A DNA stretch of 27,885 nt from a virus, in UHGV virus genome UHGV-1486778; one strand, given 5' to 3'. The translations under genes and the position numbers were made by a program. Under the pieces are notes generated by a model. It was not told where the DNA came from. It did not search any database and saw only the letters and a program-made list of their open reading frames with translations. How positions within the stretch are numbered: position 1 is the first letter of the stretch; each line of letters begins with the position of its first letter. Below are positions 1 through 6,475 of this stretch, piece by piece.

Positions 1-286
1 GCACCAGACGGCGGTGATAGTTATCCGCGACCATTCCGGCATATCCCTTCAGGTTTGCGGCACTCGGACAGTTTTTGCTGGTCATCAGGATTGACGTGAA
101 ATTCTCCTCTCCGCACGCCTCGGCAACCATCAGCGCGTCGATTAGGTTTCTGTTTCTCGCCTGCTTCCGGATAACTTCGAAGGCTTTCCGGTAGAGCGGA
201 ATTGAAAACGCTTCCGGCTCCAGCATTGCCAGAACGAAAGGCGCGAACCAATTCAGAGCGGAACCATCGACGCATCGAGTCAGGCG

Positions 287-1291
287 ATGGATGAGCTTGT
301 AAATCGTCTTTCAGCCATCAGAAAACCCCGTGACGAGGTTAAACCTGTACGGTTAGGGGAAATCATCACCGACTACACTGACACGCTTGACAGGCGTCTG
401 AGGAACGGAGAAGAGTCAGATACCCTGAAGACCGGAATCGAAGAACTTGATGCCATCACCGGAGGGATGAACGCGGAAGACCTGGTGATAATCGCTGCTC
501 GTCCTGGTATGGGTAAAACCGAACTGGCGCTGAAGATTGCCGAAGGCGTTGCAAGCCGCGTTATTCCCGGTTCTGACGTCCGGCGCGGAGTGTTGATTTT
601 CTCGATGGAAATGAGCGCATTGCAGATTGCAGAGCGAAGCATTGCCAACGCCGGGAGGATGTCGGTTAGCGTGCTGCGAAACCCTGCATCGATGGATGAC
701 GAAGGCTGGGCGCGTGTTGCTAACGGCATGAGTCAGCTTGCAGATTTGGATGTATGGGTAGTCGATGCCTCGCGGTTATCGGTCGAAGAAATTCGCTCAA
801 TCGCAGAACGGCACAAACAGGAAAATCCAAACCTGTCACTCATCATGGCGGATTATCTTGGCCTGATTGAGAAGCCGAAAGCAGATCGCAACGACCTCGC
901 AATTGCTCACATCTCCGGAAGTCTAAAAGCGATGGCGAAAGACCTGAAAACGCCTGTTATCTCCCTAAGTCAGCTTTCGCGCGATGTTGAGAAGCGACCA
1001 AACAAACGCCCGACAAACGCAGATTTGCGTGATTCTGGAAGCATTGAACAGGACGCAGACTCAATCATCATGCTCTATCGGGAAGCGGTATATGACGAGA
1101 ACAGTAGCGCCGCGCCATTTGCTGAAATCATTGTGACGAAAAACCGTTTTGGCTCGCTTGGTACGGTTTACCAGCGGTTCTGCAACGGACACTTTGTTGC
1201 ATGTGACCAGGACGAAGCCAGACAGATTTGCACAGCATCAAATGCACCTGCTGCGCGTGGCAGACGATATGCACAAGGGGCTGACGTATGA
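287..1291 (+). CDS. DnaB-family replicative helicase, C-terminal RecA-like ATPase domain only (334 aa)
   Basis: Walker A motif [11 protein letters not shown], and DnaB-like [22 protein letters not shown] and [17 protein letters not shown] blocks. The frame has a stop at 203-205 and no start codon before 287, so the roughly 170-aa DnaB N-terminal domain is absent in frame. Confidence 0.8.
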
Positions 1292-1317
1292 CCATCTACA
1301 TCACTGAGCTAATAACA

Positions 1318-1348
1318 GGGGCTATTTACACAGTAGCCCTTTTTTATT
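1318..1348 (+). terminator. Rho-independent terminator, tR2-like position downstream of the replication gene
   Basis: Stem gggcta (1319-1324) pairs with tagccc (1334-1339) around a 9-nt loop, followed by ttttttatt. It lies 27 nt after the helicase stop. Confidence 0.6.
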
Positions 1349-1374
1349 GGATTAAGAGCGAGGGGTAAGTACCG

Positions 1375-1557
1375 ATGGTAAATGCATTTATTTGTAGTTT
1401 ATTTCTTGTCGCGATTTTTCATGGATTCCTTCTGATGATGAGTTTTGTTCTCTGGAATAATGGATATCGCATATTGGGAGTAGGTTTTGTTTTACGGTTT
1501 TCAGTCCTCTGCGCGTTGCTACCGATAATTATGGCGACTATCAAATATTATTGGTGA
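1375..1557 (+). CDS. Small hydrophobic protein (60 aa, about 2 predicted TM helices), unknown function
   Basis: ATG preceded by GAGGGG 6 nt upstream. The local sequence is AT-rich and the product is almost entirely hydrophobic. Occupies the ren/ninA slot of lambdoid phages. Confidence 0.4.
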   Translation: MVNAFICSLFLVAIFHGFLLMMSFVLWNNGYRILGVGFVLRFSVLCALLPIIMATIKYYW

Positions 1558-1572
1558 CCCAAAAAATCATCG

Positions 1573-1923
1573 ATGGAGAGTGATATGGACGAATCAAGAA
1601 AGCAGTTTGAAGAAAGTTGGTTGCGACGTGGAGGCGAATCTTCAGACCTTATCCGTTACCCTGAAAATCACCATGAAATTGGCAGCGGTAATATTGGTGG
1701 TCAATACGTGATGAACGATGTTCAAGGCCACTGGCAAACGTGGCAGGCATCGCGAGCAGCTTTTGAACTGGATATCGACTGGCCCGAATCGAATGACGAC
1801 TTTTGGAAAGATGGTGAAGAAGGTGCTTATGCGATGGGTTATGAGGATGGGCGTGACAAAACGATAATTGCAGTAATGAAAGCTATCAGAGCCGCTGGAA
1901 TTAAAGAGAAGAATTTTCGATGA
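1573..1923 (+). CDS. Acidic, Trp-rich hypothetical protein (116 aa; alternative start at 1585 with SD GGAGAG)
   Basis: Open frame whose stop overlaps the ninB start in ATGA at 1920-1923. About 23 Asp/Glu versus 14 Lys/Arg. No family recognised. Confidence 0.5.
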   Translation: MESDMDESRKQFEESWLRRGGESSDLIRYPENHHEIGSGNIGGQYVMNDVQGHWQTWQASRAAFELDIDWPESNDDFWKDGEEGAYAMGYEDGRDKTIIAVMKAIRAAGIKEKNFR

Positions 1924-2330
1924 AGCAAACAATCTTCCTCCGAACTAAGCAACAACAGCAAGCTGCAATAAATGCCATCCTCGCAACACCACTCGATAAA
2001 GACAAGCCAGTCACCATCCGCATTACTGACTACAAGCGCAACCTTGACCAGAACGCAAAATTTCACGCGATGGTCGCAGATATCGCTCGTCAGGTTCAAT
2101 GGTGCGGCAAATGGTTAAAACCGGAACAATGGAAGGTTTTGTTGATTAGCGGTCATGCAGTGGCAACAAACCTGGAAACTGATGTTTTGCCCGGGCTTGA
2201 AGGCGAATACGTCAACATTCGCGAAAGCAGCGCGCAGATGAGCGTGAAGCGCATGGCAAGTCTGATCGAGTACACAACAGCCTGGGCTATTGGTCAGGGT
2301 GTCAGATTTACCGACAGGAGGTACGAATGA
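1920..2330 (+). CDS. ninB: NinB recombination protein (Orf-family recombination mediator)
   Basis: 136 aa. Recalled similarity to lambda NinB (DQN...QVxWxGxWLxxExWK block) and position at the head of the nin region. Confidence 0.8.
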
Positions 2331-2503
2331 GACGACAGCGACGAAGTTTCACCGACATCATCTGCGAAAACTGCAAATACCTTCCAACGAAGCGCTCCAG
2401 AAACAAACGCAAGCCAATCCCAAAAGAATCTGACGTAAAAACCTTCAATTACACAGCTCACCTGTGGGATATCCGGTGGCTAAGACATCGTGCGAGGAAA
2501 TGA
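2327..2503 (+). CDS. ninE: NinE protein (58 aa)
   Basis: Translated by hand: [58 protein letters not shown], which closely matches NinE as I recall it. Absent from the ORF track because it is under 60 aa. ATGA overlap with ninB. Confidence 0.75.
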
Positions 2504-2865
2504 CAATGGATTATTCACAGTTAAGTGATTTTGAAATTAACAAGCGAGTGGCAATTTGCTGTGGATTTGCTCCCGAAGATTGCGAAATCGCAAAGTTGGG
2601 AACATCAATCGTTGGTGTTGAGTGGGATGACGAAACTGGTTATGCAATAAAAACGGTTGATTACTGTAAAAGCCCATCAGACGCAGAGCCGATTATCGTA
2701 GAGAACAGAATTGGAATTATTCCAGCACCAGAAAATGGATTATGGAAGGCAGCGCATAGAAAAGTTGGCGGTGATAGTACCCCATATCATATGACTCAAG
2801 ATGAAAACCCACTCCGCGCTGCCATGATTGTCTTTCTCATGATGCAGGACGCCAATAATGCTTAG
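2500..2865 (+). CDS. NinX-like protein (121 aa from ATG 2500)
   Basis: Located between ninE and ninF, as ninX is in P22-type nin regions. ATGA overlap with the ninE stop. The family call is by synteny only. Confidence 0.5.
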
Positions 2866-3034
2866 CCCATCCCAATCCATTCAATACCAGAAAGAAAGCG
2901 TCGAGCGAGCTTTAACGTGCGCTAACTGCGGTCAGAAGCTGCATGTGCTGGAAGTTCACGTGTGTGAGCACTGCTGCGCAGAACTGATGAGCGATCCGAA
3001 TAGCTCAATGTACGAGGAAGAAGACGATGAGTGA
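2858..3034 (+). CDS. ninF: NinF protein (58 aa, Cys-rich)
   Basis: Translated by hand: [58 protein letters not shown], which matches lambda NinF as I recall it. Under 60 aa, so not in the ORF track. Confidence 0.75.
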   Translation: MLSPSQSIQYQKESVERALTCANCGQKLHVLEVHVCEHCCAELMSDPNSSMYEEEDDE

Positions 3035-3239
3035 TTACCTGAAATGGTATCTCTGCCACCGCTGGTTAATTAAGTTTGCTGTAAAAGACTGGATGACAGC
3101 GGATGCCAACAAGCTTAAGCAAAGAAAAGACTATTACTACGCCAGAATGAAGGAAAACTACTGCTCAATTCGCACTCGCATATTTATTAAAAAAGACCTT
3201 CAGTCAATTCTTCAATTGCGAGGGAAGGTAAATGGCTAA
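3027..3239 (+). CDS. Hypothetical basic protein (70 aa)
   Basis: Open frame overlapping the ninF stop and the next start. AT-rich. No family recognised. Confidence 0.4.
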   Translation: MSDYLKWYLCHRWLIKFAVKDWMTADANKLKQRKDYYYARMKENYCSIRTRIFIKKDLQSILQLRGKVNG

Positions 3240-3522
3240 CCTACGCAAAGAAGCGCGCGGCAGAGAATGCCAGGTACGTATTTACGGCGTATGCAATGGC
3301 AATCCTGAAACTACAGTTCTGGCACATTACCGGATGGCTGGAATTTGCGGAACGGGAATGAAGCCTGACGACCTGATCGGCGCATGGGCTTGTAGCGCGT
3401 GTCACGATGAAATCGACCGACGCACCCATAATCTCGACAACAAAGACGCCAGACTTTACCACCTCGAAGGCGTGATCAGGACGCAGGCGATACTGCTGAA
3501 GGAGGGGAAGATTAAGTCATGA
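3232..3522 (+). CDS. YbcO-like (DUF1364) putative zinc-binding nuclease (96 aa)
   Basis: Cys/His-rich (CQVRIYGVCNG...CSACHDEID) and the same 96-aa length as the DLP12 prophage protein YbcO, which sits immediately upstream of rusA there as well. Confidence 0.65.
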   Translation: MANLRKEARGRECQVRIYGVCNGNPETTVLAHYRMAGICGTGMKPDDLIGAWACSACHDEIDRRTHNLDNKDARLYHLEGVIRTQAILLKEGKIKS

Positions 3523-3881
3523 ACGAATATCAGTTTGTGCTCCCATACCCGCCGTCGGTGAATACCTACTGGCGAAGACGGGGAAGCCAATATTACATAA
3601 GCGACAAAGGCCAGAAATACCGAAAAGACGTTCAGCAAATCATCCGCCAACTCAAGTTAGACATTTTCACCAAATCACGACTCCGTATCAAAGTCATCGC
3701 AGACGTTCCGGACTCCCGCCGTCGCGACCTCGACAACATCCTGAAAGGTTTACTCGACTCCCTTATCCACGCCGGATTTGCGGAAGACGACGAGCAATTC
3801 GATGACATTCGCGTAATTCGTGGCGTGAAAGTACCAGGCGGAAGGCTTGGAATAAAAATCACCGAACTGGAGAACGCATGA
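3519..3881 (+). CDS. rusA: RusA Holliday-junction resolvase
   Basis: 120 aa with PYPPSVNxYWRRRG and RRRDLDN(I)LKGLLDSL motifs characteristic of RusA. ATGA overlap with the flanking genes. Confidence 0.85.
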   Translation: MNEYQFVLPYPPSVNTYWRRRGSQYYISDKGQKYRKDVQQIIRQLKLDIFTKSRLRIKVIADVPDSRRRDLDNILKGLLDSLIHAGFAEDDEQFDDIRVIRGVKVPGGRLGIKITELENA

Positions 3882-4066
3882 ACGCCACAATTCAAACGAT
3901 ACCAGAGCTTCTTATCCAGACACGAGGCAATCAGACCGAAGTGGCAAGGATGCTTTCCTGCGCAAGAGGAACAGTGCTCAAGTACAACCGAGACAGCAAA
4001 GGCGAGCGTCACGTAATAGTTAACGGCGTCCTGATGGTCAAACAGGGCAAAAGGGGAAGGCCATGA
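3878..4066 (+). CDS. ninH: NinH (small HTH protein)
   Basis: 62 aa with GNQTEVARMLSCARGTVLKY...HVIVNGVLMV, matching lambda NinH as I recall it. Immediately upstream of Q. Confidence 0.7.
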   Translation: MNATIQTIPELLIQTRGNQTEVARMLSCARGTVLKYNRDSKGERHVIVNGVLMVKQGKRGRP

Positions 4067-4686
4067 GACTCGAAAGCGTAGCTAAATTTCATTCGCCAAA
4101 AAGCCCAATGATGAGTGACTCACCACGGGCTACGGCTTCTGACTCTCTTTCCGGTACTGATGTGATGGCTGCTATGGGGATGGCGCAATCACAAGCCGGA
4201 TTCGGTATGGCTGCATTCTGCGGCAAGCACGAACTCAGCCAGAATGACAAACAAAAGGCTATCAACTATCTGATGCAATTTGCACACAAGGTATCGGGGA
4301 AATATCGTGGTGTGGCAAAGCTCGAAGGAAATACTAAGGCAAAGGTACTGCAAGTGCTCGCAACATTCGCTTATGCGGATTATTGCCGTAGTGCCGCGAC
4401 GCCGGGCGCAAGATGCAGAGATTGCCACGGTACAGGCCGTGCGGTTGATATTGCCAAAACAGAGCAGTGGGGGAGAGTTGTTGAGAAAGAGTGTGGAAGA
4501 TGCAAAGGCGTCGGCTATTCAAGGATGCCAGCAAGCGCCGCATATCGCGCTGTAACGATGCTAATCCCCAACCTTACCCAACCCACATGGTCACGCACTG
4601 TTAAGCCGCTGTATGACGCTCTGGTGGTGCAATGCCACAAAGAAGAGTCAATCGCAGACAACATTTTGAATGCGGTCACACGTTAG
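4063..4686 (+). CDS. Q: Late-gene antiterminator Q (lambda-type)
   Basis: The 207-aa product matches my recollection of lambda Q essentially throughout, including the Cys cluster CRDCHGTGR...CGRCKGVGY, and it is followed by a lambda-type PR'/qut region. Confidence 0.9.
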   Translation: MRLESVAKFHSPKSPMMSDSPRATASDSLSGTDVMAAMGMAQSQAGFGMAAFCGKHELSQNDKQKAINYLMQFAHKVSGKYRGVAKLEGNTKAKVLQVLATFAYADYCRSAATPGARCRDCHGTGRAVDIAKTEQWGRVVEKECGRCKGVGYSRMPASAAYRAVTMLIPNLTQPTWSRTVKPLYDALVVQCHKEESIADNILNAVTR

Positions 4687-4728
4687 CAGCATGATTGCCA
4701 CGGATGGCAACATATTAACGGCATGATA

Positions 4729-4757
4729 TTGACTTTTTGAATAAAGTTGGGTAAATT
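4729..4757 (+). promoter_or_regulatory. Late promoter PR' with overlapping qut site (lambda-type)
   Basis: -35 TTGACT at 4729-4734, a 17-bp spacer, and -10 TAAATT at 4752-4757. The surrounding sequence matches the lambda PR'/qut region as I remember it. Confidence 0.7.
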
Positions 4758-4763
4758 TGACCC

Positions 4764-4957
4764 AACGATGGGTTAATTCGCTCGTTGTGGTAGTGAGATG
4801 AAAAGAGGCGGCGCTTACTACCGATTCCGCCTAGTTGGTCACTTCGACGTATCGTCTGGAACTCCAACCATCGCAGGCTGAGAGGTCTGCAAAATGCAAT
4901 CCCGAAACAGTTCGCAGGTAATAGTTAGAGCCTGCATAACGGTTTCGGGATTTTTTA
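4764..4957 (+). ncRNA. 6S-like short late leader transcript (PR' to tR')
   Basis: Runs from the inferred +1, about 7 nt past the -10, to the tR' hairpin and U-tract. Called by homology to the lambda late leader region. Confidence 0.5.
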
Positions 4958-4958
4958 T
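4899..4958 (+). terminator. tR' rho-independent terminator (substrate of Q antitermination)
   Basis: Arm atcccgaaac (4899-4908) pairs with gtttcgggat (4942-4951), with nested gcagg/cctgc pairing, followed by a T-run at 4951-4956. Confidence 0.7.
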
Positions 4959-5356
4959 ATCTGTGCAACAGGTAAGAGCATTCTCCCTTATGGGGCTTGG
5001 CTTAAATGCACCGAGTGCTCTTTCCGTTGTGCTGAATTAAGCGAATACCGGAAGCAGAACCGGATCAACAAATGCGTACAGGCGTCATCGCCGCCCAGCA
5101 ACAGCACAACCCAAACTGAGCCGTAGCCACTGGCTATCCTGAATTCATCAGTGATAGTTACGCTGCGGCCTTCTACACATGACCTTCGTGAAAGCGGGTG
5201 GCAAGAGGCTGCGCTAACAACCTCCTGCCGTTTTGCCCGTGCATATCGGTCACGAACAAATCTGATTACTAAACACAGTAGCCTGGATTTGTTCTATCAG
5301 TAATCGACCTTATTCCTAATTAAATAGAGCAAATCCCCTCAATGAAGGGGTAGAGC

Positions 5357-5560
5357 ATGTACCGTATGGACAAAATCAGAGAATGGTTCAGTTACAGCTT
5401 CGGAGGACTGACTGCGATGGGTGGCATTCTCTCCCTGAATGACTGGGCTGTCATCATTGGTATTCTTTGTACTGTCGGCACATTTGGCATCAACTGGTAC
5501 TACAAGCGCAAAGAGCGCGAGGACAGATTGAATGGCAATGTCACCGGCACTACGAAATAG
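5357..5560 (+). CDS. Holin, class II pinholin-like, with dual-start motif (M1-Y-R-M4)
   Basis: 67 aa with two TM segments, the first Gly/Ser/Ala-rich and SAR-like. Two in-frame ATGs at 5357 and 5366 are separated by a basic residue. It sits immediately upstream of, and overlaps, a SAR endolysin gene. Confidence 0.75.
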
Positions 5561-6035
5561 CGTAATAGCGGCGATAAGTGGCGGGGCTATTGCTATAGCA
5601 TCTGTGTTAATCACTGGCCCAAGTGGTAACGATGGTCTGGAAGGTGTCAGTTACATACCATACAAAGATATTGTTGGCGTATGGACTGTATGTCACGGAC
5701 ACACCGGAAAAGACATTATGCTCGGTAAAACGTATACCGAAGCAGAATGCAAAGCCCTCCTGAATAAAGACCTCGCCACCGTCGCCAGACAAATTAACCC
5801 GTACATCAAAGTCGATATACCGGAAACAACGCGCGGCGCTCTTTACTCGTTCGTTTACAACGTTGGTGCTGGAAATTTCAGAACATCGACACTTCTTCGC
5901 AAAATAAACCAGGGCGATATCAAAGGCGCATGTGATCAGCTACGGCGCTGGACATACGCTGGCGGTAAGCAATGGAAAGGGCTGATGACTCGCCGTGAGA
6001 TTGAGCGTGAAGTCTGTTTGTGGGGGCAACAATGA
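5532..6035 (+). CDS. SAR endolysin (T4-type lysozyme, GH24) with N-terminal signal-anchor-release domain
   Basis: Weakly hydrophobic Gly/Ala-rich N-terminus ([20 protein letters not shown]) followed by a lysozyme-like domain ([11 protein letters not shown]...[12 protein letters not shown]). Confidence 0.85.
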
Positions 6036-6475
6036 GTAGAGTAACCGCGATTATCTCCGCTCTGGTTATCAGCATCATCGTCTGCCTGTCATGGGCTGTT
6101 AATCATTACCGTGATAACGCCATGACCTATAAAGAACAGCGCGACAAAGCCACATCCATCATCGCTGACATGCAGAAGCGTCAACATGATGTAGCTGAAC
6201 TCGACGCCAGATACACAAAGGAGCTTGCTGATGCTAACGCGACTATCGAAAGTCTTCGTGCTGATGTTTCTGCTGGTCGTAAGTGGCTGCACGTCAAAGC
6301 AGTCTGTCCGGACAAGCATAAAACCACCGCCGCCTCCGGCGTGGATGATGCTTCCAGCCCCAGACTTACTGACACCGCTCAACGGGATTATTTCGTTCTC
6401 AGAGAGCGCATCGAAACCATAACTAACCAATTGAATGGCCTGCAAGAATATGTGAGATCACAGTGTTCATATTAG
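6032..6475 (+). CDS. Rz: Rz-type inner-membrane spanin (i-spanin)
   Basis: N-terminal TM helix followed by a coiled-coil-like periplasmic domain. The start overlaps the endolysin stop in ATGA. Contains an embedded Rz1-type gene in the +1 frame. Confidence 0.75.
6231..6422 (+). CDS. Rz1: Rz1-type outer-membrane lipoprotein spanin (o-spanin), embedded in Rz
   Basis: SD AAGGAG 8 nt upstream of ATG 6231. Signal peptide with lipobox LVVSGC, and a Pro-rich mature part ([10 protein letters not shown]). Lies entirely inside Rz in the +1 frame. Confidence 0.7.

Follow-up and report, generated by a model that had tools for sequence, protein, structure and literature searches.

In the lambdoid phages lambda, P22 and Nil2, the last gene of the replication module (ren in lambda, gene 12 in P22, p in Nil2) overlaps the 25-26-codon ninA by an ATGA, ninA itself being annotated in P22 and Nil2 and readable in lambda. 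A terminator lies at the same position in all three phages; the records of P22 and Nil2 annotate it as such, the latter under the name 'tR2 terminator'. In lambda, 30 bp separate the NinA AUG from tR2 and 16 bp separate tR2 from the NinA stop, and ribosomes near tR2 suppress termination (Li et al. 2015, PMC4824070). Beyond it, ninA of lambda and P22 joins ninB directly, again by an ATGA. Here we describe the corresponding junction in the UHGV virus genome UHGV-1486778, whose 27,885 nucleotides were analysed as one stretch (the window). In this phage, two open reading frames (ORFs) stand between ninA and ninB: ORF1, which would encode a hydrophobic peptide of 60 amino acids (aa), and ORF2, which encodes a 112-aa acidic, Trp-rich protein of the family PF26207 (Phage_phiTE_015)/phrog_343.

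The locus is the junction between the replication and nin modules of a lambdoid Escherichia coli prophage with a P22-like early region. Positions 236-6036 of the window are 99.9% identical to a P22-like prophage of E. coli ESC818, integrated between ybhB and ybhC, in which the genes run in the order CII, replication protein, DnaB-type helicase, one hypothetical protein, NinB, NinE, NinX, NinF and onwards to the antiterminator. Relative to lambda and P22, comparison of the sequences identifies the ORF1/ORF2 pair as an insertion at the ninA-ninB junction. An initial annotation of this DNA had assigned the pair to the ren slot; this placement was mistaken, as ren in lambda lies upstream of ninA and tR2, but its description of the two as variable, non-core genes of the early-right operon was supported. 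Our preferred explanation, to which we give a probability of roughly 0.55, is that ORF1 and ORF2 are non-essential, delayed-early accessory genes behind tR2, carried as independent cassettes.

The independence of the two genes emerges from the comparison of their alleles across 80 IMG/VR loci retrieved with the PF26207 protein, 34 retrieved through a DNA word of ORF1, and several further ones from genomes, where a scan of contigs gave seven loci. A PF26207 gene follows ORF1 within 15-27 nucleotides (nt) in all 31 of the 31 usable IMG/VR copies, and also in the E. coli genomes examined. The PF26207 genes found behind ORF1 represent at least eight alleles, some of them only 35% identical to ORF2. 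Conversely, where the ORF2 allele is at least 94% identical to that of the window, only three of 20 IMG/VR loci carry ORF1 and 17 are without it. BLAST comparison with Gally and with prophages of O26 and uropathogenic E. coli (UPEC) delimits a mosaic homology block on the + strand (1337-1614), which comprises the ORF1 cassette together with the first 30 nt of the PF26207 gene. The breakpoints at 1614, 1741, 1767 and about 1903-1911 show that the recombination joints fall at the N-terminal (MDESRKQFEE), central (W..WQASRAAIE) and C-terminal (AIRAAGIK) motifs of PF26207. Because the block carries the 5' end of the PF26207 gene, shared recombination joints are sufficient to link that gene to ORF1, and by sequence comparison the two are independent mosaic modules, not an obligate pair. 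Among 5,426 complete E. coli genomes, 57 have the module combination of the window including ORF1, and no deposited phage record covers at least 80% of 1250-2000, that is, the ORF2 module combination plus ORF1.

The gene immediately upstream of PF26207 was phrog_1165 in 44, ORF1 in 19 and a basic, DUF7301-like gene in 17 of 102 contexts, a sample that is enriched for ORF1. The usual occupant, phrog_1165, encodes a two-helix membrane protein of 68 aa and begins with a GTG that overlaps the end of ninA (L028:2277-2483 is an example, with about 44 other loci). It exists as two alleles of about 55% identity, and the ratio of non-synonymous to synonymous substitution rates (dN/dS) is 0.42 in its frame versus 0.78 and 0.94 off frame. 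Some phages, of the type represented by locus L007, carry phrog_1165 and ORF1 together. A further cassette, phrog_5903, encodes a 106-108-aa protein with an N-terminal transmembrane helix and sits between phrog_1165 and ORF1 in some phages (L007:2674-2994; also L022, L042, L066 and L090).

Upstream of both ORFs, the intrinsic terminator (1317-1347, + strand) is formed by a 10-pair stem with a 5-nt loop at 1317-1341 (AGGGGCTATT/TACAC/AGTAGCCCTT), followed by the T-run TTTTTATTGG. The hairpin is retained in the centroid fold, with a z score of about -2.0 to -2.6. A pattern scan alone performed at chance level (one terminator found versus 1.5 expected in shuffles), and the terminator is taken as real because of the comparative evidence from lambda, P22 and Nil2, not because of the scan. 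Two unrelated hairpin alleles occupy one register, GGGGCTATTT/AGTAGCCCT in the window versus AGGCCTGC/GCAGGCCT in lambda, P22 and Nil2, and a Pseudocitrobacter prophage (L017) has two substitutions in the hairpin, both of which preserve pairing. The tR2-like terminator of the initial annotation was therefore borne out by its position in the three phages. Its description as lying directly after the helicase gene is too simple, as the hairpin lies inside the 26-codon ninA (1288-1368, + strand; phrog_5907, E = 1.7e-16). The ATG of ninA at 1288 overlaps the helicase TGA as ATGA, the hairpin begins 29 nt after this ATG, and the ninA stop occupies 1366-1368; the N-terminus, MTIYITEL, is the same in the window as in lambda, P22 and Nil2. 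Taken together, the comparison marks the terminator as a tR2-type element, already known, inside ninA, where it takes the position of lambda tR2 but uses another hairpin allele. By analogy with lambda, and because ribosomes near tR2 suppress termination there (Li et al. 2015), translation of ninA could tune tR2 read-through. The ATGA coupling of ninA is also retained behind differing upstream genes, which include two helicase types and ORFs of 96 and 89 aa.

ORF2 (1585-1923, + strand) almost certainly starts at ATG 1585, on the evidence of its sequence. This start is preferred to ATG 1573 because the Shine-Dalgarno (SD) sequence GGAG (1575-1578) sits 6 nt upstream of it and the Prokaryotic Genome Annotation Pipeline (PGAP) starts there, and because a 90%-identical allele (L007) has no ATG 1573 and the family N-terminus is MDESRKQFEE, within the general pattern M-D/T-E/S-S-R-x-Q-F-E. 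The acidic, Trp-rich protein of 116 aa initially described is indeed acidic, with five Trp and an isoelectric point (pI) of 4.66, but its likelier form is the 112-aa one, with a pI of 4.8. The proposed coupling into ninB was confirmed, the ninB start ATG overlapping the ORF2 TGA as ATGA at 1920-1923. Over its 112 aa ORF2 has 22 D/E versus 14 K/R, a net charge of about -8. Comparison of the window with the L007 allele gives a dN/dS of 0.33 in the ORF2 frame, versus 0.43 and 2.66 in the other two frames.

The initial annotation recognised no family for either protein, which stands for ORF1 but not for ORF2. The 116-aa version of ORF2 matches phrog_343 over its full length (residues 1-116, E = 1.6e-33), and a search of 5.8 billion proteins gave 122 homologues, nearly all recorded with PF26207; the assignment comes precomputed for P0001, the cluster representative at 96% identity, and for 117 further matches. 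Scans of Pfam, NCBIfam and PADLOC gave no match to ORF2, the Pfam copy used being one that lacks the PF26207 model. At 50% identity, an exhaustive PF26207 profile search yielded 572 clusters, with only small stand-alone proteins among the 150 listed. Across 150 diverse members, residues R5, F8, E9, W50, W53, A55, S56 and R57 are near-invariant, and every one of them is present in ORF2, as is the family motif set of N-terminal SR.QFE.W, central W..WQASR.A.E and C-terminal AI.AAG.KVK. The family has a median length of 98 aa, a median pI of 4.9, a net charge of -6 and 4.2% Trp. We consider ORF2, on these sequence criteria, to be a new member of a known family without assigned function.

Searches with tblastn found PF26207 members in HK022, many Shiga toxin (Stx) phages and Salmonella P22-like phages, all annotated 'hypothetical'; a distant member has relatives in virulent Pseudomonas, Aeromonas and Hafnia phages, likewise annotated 'hypothetical'. 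Members that can be named include a hypothetical protein of HK022 (33319-33630) and Gally gp39, described as 'similar to P22 EaD'. In lambdoid phages the gene is found just upstream of ninB. Literature searches with PF26207, phiTE_015, the PHROG numbers, DUF7301 and peptide strings returned nothing relevant, and a preprint describing a phage accessory-gene screen does not cover the nin region. Some PF26207 proteins have N-terminal extensions (P0015, P0130, P0142, P0178, P0186 and P0190; P0125, P0137, P0145 and others), among them a Cys-rich, zinc-ribbon-like type (C.KC.GTG..DSGG...ECDC) and a segment of about 35 aa (MRWAIKHKSGRTLFVTSDEF...); both could have arisen by fusion to small genes upstream or could reflect alternative starts. 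Separately, ORF1 of the E. coli UPEC_U013 and O26 genomes is followed by an intact PF26207 gene of 118 aa (L005:2509-2865 and L006:1810-2166), of which PGAP calls only the C-terminal 81 aa (WP_001341809.1). In this allele the stop is shifted, and an overlap of about 29 nt with ninB takes the place of the ATGA.

ORF2 was modelled with AlphaFold2 from the diverse 150-sequence alignment, giving a mean predicted local distance difference test score (pLDDT) of 78.7 and a predicted template modelling score of 0.63. Residues 1-60 are modelled in pLDDT blocks of 87-97 as a pair of long helices packed around a small beta element. The fold had no match among solved structures, DNA mimics included, and searches of PDB sequences with two family profiles gave no relative. 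From the model and the family alignment, we infer that ORF2 is a real, soluble, moderately acidic protein with a confidently predicted N-terminal helical domain and conserved ends framing swappable inserts. Profile and structure searches have supplied a family for ORF2 (phrog_343) but no fold match, and profile searches have left ORF1 an orphan; confident homology of both ORFs to housekeeping phage proteins was not found.

ORF1 (1375-1557, + strand) is putatively coding, and its product is predicted to form a two-helix membrane hairpin. Its grand average of hydropathy is 1.52, with three K/R, no D/E and a pI of 9.3; the two hydrophobic segments are separated by WNNGYR and the C-terminus is KYYW. 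The GC content of the ORF is 36%, versus 52% for the window. The 60-aa hydrophobic ORF in AT-rich DNA is therefore as initially described, except that its SD sequence (GAGGGG, 1360-1365, nine bases from the ATG) is decent and not strong. ORF1 DNA occurs in one deposited phage (Gally, LF82 prophage) and in 78 of the 5,426 complete E. coli genomes, and some annotation pipelines other than PGAP record it as a 'hypothetical protein'. No match was found in Pfam, PHROG, NCBIfam or PADLOC, the best PHROG hit being at chance level (E = 0.69). Several identities were considered for ORF1 and rejected. A lipoprotein does not fit, as Cys7 is replaced by Tyr in other alleles. Nor does a class II holin or pinholin, given the lack of a charged C-terminal tail (KYYW), the location in the early operon and a holin annotated elsewhere. 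For a type I toxin with antisense RNA, neither strand of 1100-2400 offered a promoter-like site and there was no relevant Rfam match: at E <= 1, region 1100-2100 gave only a chance match to a snoRNA, and at the gathering score the whole window gave none.

Under our preferred explanation, ORF1 and ORF2 would be delayed-early genes of the lytic cycle. A simple consensus scan of 1100-2400 found no sigma-70-like promoter on either strand, so transcription would be confined to the early-right operon, starting from pR only and reaching the two genes after N-type antitermination at tR2; a gene for an N-type antiterminator is annotated in the identical ESC818 prophage. ORF2 would be translated from its own GGAG, and ninB would be translationally coupled to the ORF2 stop. 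ORF1, if it is translated, would insert into the inner membrane as a helical hairpin and would be a positional analogue of the commoner phrog_1165. ORF2 is read as a non-essential accessory gene because lambda and P22 lack it.

A number of our results count against this explanation, and most of them concern ORF1. Besides the simplicity of the consensus scan for promoters and the low confidence of the modelled C-terminal half of ORF2 (blocks of 50-74), 15 of 53 copies of ORF1 have a weakened SD sequence, GAGTGG, its dN/dS of 0.64-0.72 does not differ from that of the other frames, its codon-position composition shows no significant three-base periodicity (p = 0.25), PGAP never annotates it, and only four clusters at 90% identity exist among the 5.8 billion proteins. 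The observations on ORF1 favour an alternative in which ORF1 is non-functional, either an AT-rich leader left open by chance or one translated solely to keep ribosomes between tR2 and the PF26207 gene. Translation of such a leader would guard against Rho-dependent polarity and maintain coupling, and its amino-acid sequence would be irrelevant. The polymorphisms of ORF1 (eight synonymous and 18 non-synonymous) are near the neutral expectation and its dN/dS is frame-independent; a T-rich strand yields hydrophobic codons through composition alone; and the orphan status of the ORF agrees with the same view. A leader would also fit the tight packing and Rho-dependent terminators of the lambda nin region (Cheng et al. 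1995, as cited in PMC8022706). Against this, the frame is intact in 14 of 14 DNA haplotypes (53 copies), none of which has an indel even though the ORF contains several T-runs, and the stop is kept, with only TGA and TAA exchanged. An ATG-initiated ORF of at least 60 codons arises in just 2.8% of dinucleotide shuffles of 1342-1584. Moreover, ORF1 is better conserved, at about 10% divergence, than the 27-nt spacer immediately 3' of it, which has differences at 7 of 27 positions and an A-run of variable length across copies, and a genuine two-helix gene, phrog_1165, fills the same slot in most relatives. On balance we lean slightly towards ORF1 making a functional protein, and regard the leader as a serious competitor with somewhat less than an even chance of being correct. 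A very different proposal is that the two ORFs make up an obligate two-component system, in which ORF1 would be either a membrane toxin, with ORF2 as its acidic antidote, or a membrane anchor for a soluble ORF2. It draws on the PF26207 gene behind every ORF1 copy and on the roughly 60% of sampled PF26207 genes that are directly preceded by a two-helix gene, ORF1 or phrog_1165. The linkage is, however, accounted for by the homology block 1337-1614, and hydrophilic genes such as DUF7301 precede many PF26207 genes. An hhalign comparison detected no homology between ORF1 and phrog_1165 (probability 1.1%), and neither an antisense promoter nor an Rfam element was found. Neither the obligate co-occurrence nor the co-variation of a toxin-antitoxin pair was seen, since 17 of 20 near-identical ORF2 alleles are without ORF1 and ORF1 pairs with alleles of anything from 35 to 100% identity. 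We consider a two-component system the least probable of the readings discussed here.

The function of ORF2 is harder to assign. Early expression, hypervariability and mosaicism are common traits of counter-defence genes, and some small exclusion proteins, such as T4 Imm, have a two-helix architecture. The initial annotation had raised the idea of an acidic DNA mimic with anti-restriction or anti-defence activity in ORF2, and of a small hydrophobic toxin or superinfection-exclusion effector in ORF1. The acidity of ORF2 and of its family (median pI 4.9), the early position and the hypervariable, mosaic nature of the ORF2 gene, and the two predicted helices of ORF1 all suit this idea. The net charge of ORF2 is nevertheless only about -8, and Ocr and ArdA have a far higher charge density. 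No sequence or fold similarity to an Ocr/ArdA-type mimic was detected, whether in Pfam, NCBIfam and PADLOC or among solved structures. The identical ESC818 prophage already carries Ral. For its part, ORF1 is only putatively translated, given its dN/dS of 0.64-0.72, and no evidence was found that it is a toxin or exclusion effector; lacking a promoter of its own in the scan of 1100-2400, it would also be unable to act against other phages in the lysogenic state. We therefore think both halves of this proposal improbable. It seems similarly unlikely that ORF2 serves the adjacent recombination or replication machinery by modulating NinB/Orf, single-stranded DNA-binding protein (SSB) or the helicase, for instance through its acidic-aromatic stretch DIDWPESNDDFW, which we take to be loosely SSB-tail-like. 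Such a role would suit the place of the family in lambdoid phages, where it nearly always comes right before ninB, with frequent translational coupling, and behind the replication genes. The acidic-aromatic segment is, however, one swappable module that many family members do not have; members also occur in virulent Pseudomonas phages, the ninB linkage being read in lambdoids only; and P22 and lambda work without the gene. As part of our preferred explanation we suggest, with low confidence, that ORF2 is a non-essential factor of the takeover or counter-defence type, interacting with the host or with competitors through protein-protein contacts and not as a DNA mimic; this assignment is much more doubtful than the accessory status of the gene. 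A wider extrapolation would see in PF26207 a large and so far unrecognised class of early proteins for host interaction or counter-defence, with exchangeable specificity inserts on a common scaffold (N-terminal helix, W..WQASR helix and C-terminal helix), ends that act as recombination joints and let lambdoid phages swap specificities, and the small two-helix membrane genes that often precede them (ORF1, phrog_1165) as functional partners; this we regard as a long shot.

The flanking genes are those expected of such a junction. The 3' part of a DnaB-type replicative helicase gene of the P22 gene 12 type (1-1291, + strand) matches Pfam DnaB_C (E = 4.4e-78) and is annotated by PGAP as 'replicative DNA helicase' in the identical ESC818 prophage. 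On the other side, ninB (1920-2330, + strand) encodes an Orf-type recombination mediator (Pfam NinB, E = 1.2e-53; phrog_72). Positions 1-236 are the reverse complement of the helicase segment expected just upstream of 236, and the helicase frame is broken as a result. The opposite orientation was found in 33 of 33 loci matching both halves of window 1-420, 100%-identical genomes included. Because the window is the whole contig (27,885 bp), the inversion was probably introduced during assembly at the end of the contig, a real inversion of about 250 bp being the less likely alternative. It was also observed that the early region (1-6036) matches the P22-like prophage and that a myovirus-type late region begins at about 5568, with matches to tail sheath, tape measure and DNA circularisation protein. 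The two sets of matches overlap in the lysis cassette (about 5568-6036), and in complete genomes such as PS_131_S11 the late region lies at another chromosomal site than the early region. Two readings of the contig fit these matches: a true hybrid phage, or a chimera created during assembly.

The nin region is a textbook case of mosaicism among small genes without assigned function (PMC8022706), and as such the locus is ordinary and will not surprise a specialist in lambdoid phages. What the analysis adds is a corrected annotation of the junction, which places the terminator within ninA and the ORF2 start at 1585 and recognises the O26 PF26207 gene as mis-truncated by PGAP, together with the demonstration that a supposed pair is two independent cassettes and not a system. 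PF26207, whose 572 clusters span both temperate and virulent gammaproteobacterial phages and whose fold found no match in solved structures, is a reasonable candidate for accessory-gene screens. ORF1 offers a test case for whether the unannotated small hydrophobic ORFs of phage early operons are translated. The practical value of these findings is modest.

Set beside the systems described to date, each part of the locus has a recognisable counterpart. PHROG 1165 (URC09167.1, vB_EcoP-611R6) differs from ORF1 in its GTG start overlapping the end of ninA, its PGAP annotation and its purifying selection, and profile-profile comparison detects no sequence kinship between them; yet both occupy the slot between ninA/tR2 and the PF26207 gene, belong to the same size class, and have two hydrophobic segments, a short polar loop and a basic/aromatic C-terminus. 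ORF2 is matched over its full length by PF26207/PHROG 343, shares the motifs MDESRKQFEE, W..WQASRAAIE and AIRAAGIK, and is of typical size, acidity and Trp content, while its particular module combination with ORF1 appears in no deposited phage record. The ninA-tR2 segment is closest to lambda, P22 (BK000583) and Nil2 (AJ413274). These phages share with the window the ATGA overlap with the preceding gene and the ninA N-terminus, and all three have a hairpin about 30 nt past the AUG, followed by a U-run and, about 20 nt further on, the ninA stop, albeit with the other hairpin allele. In lambda and P22 that stop is fused to ninB, whereas in the window two extra genes intervene.

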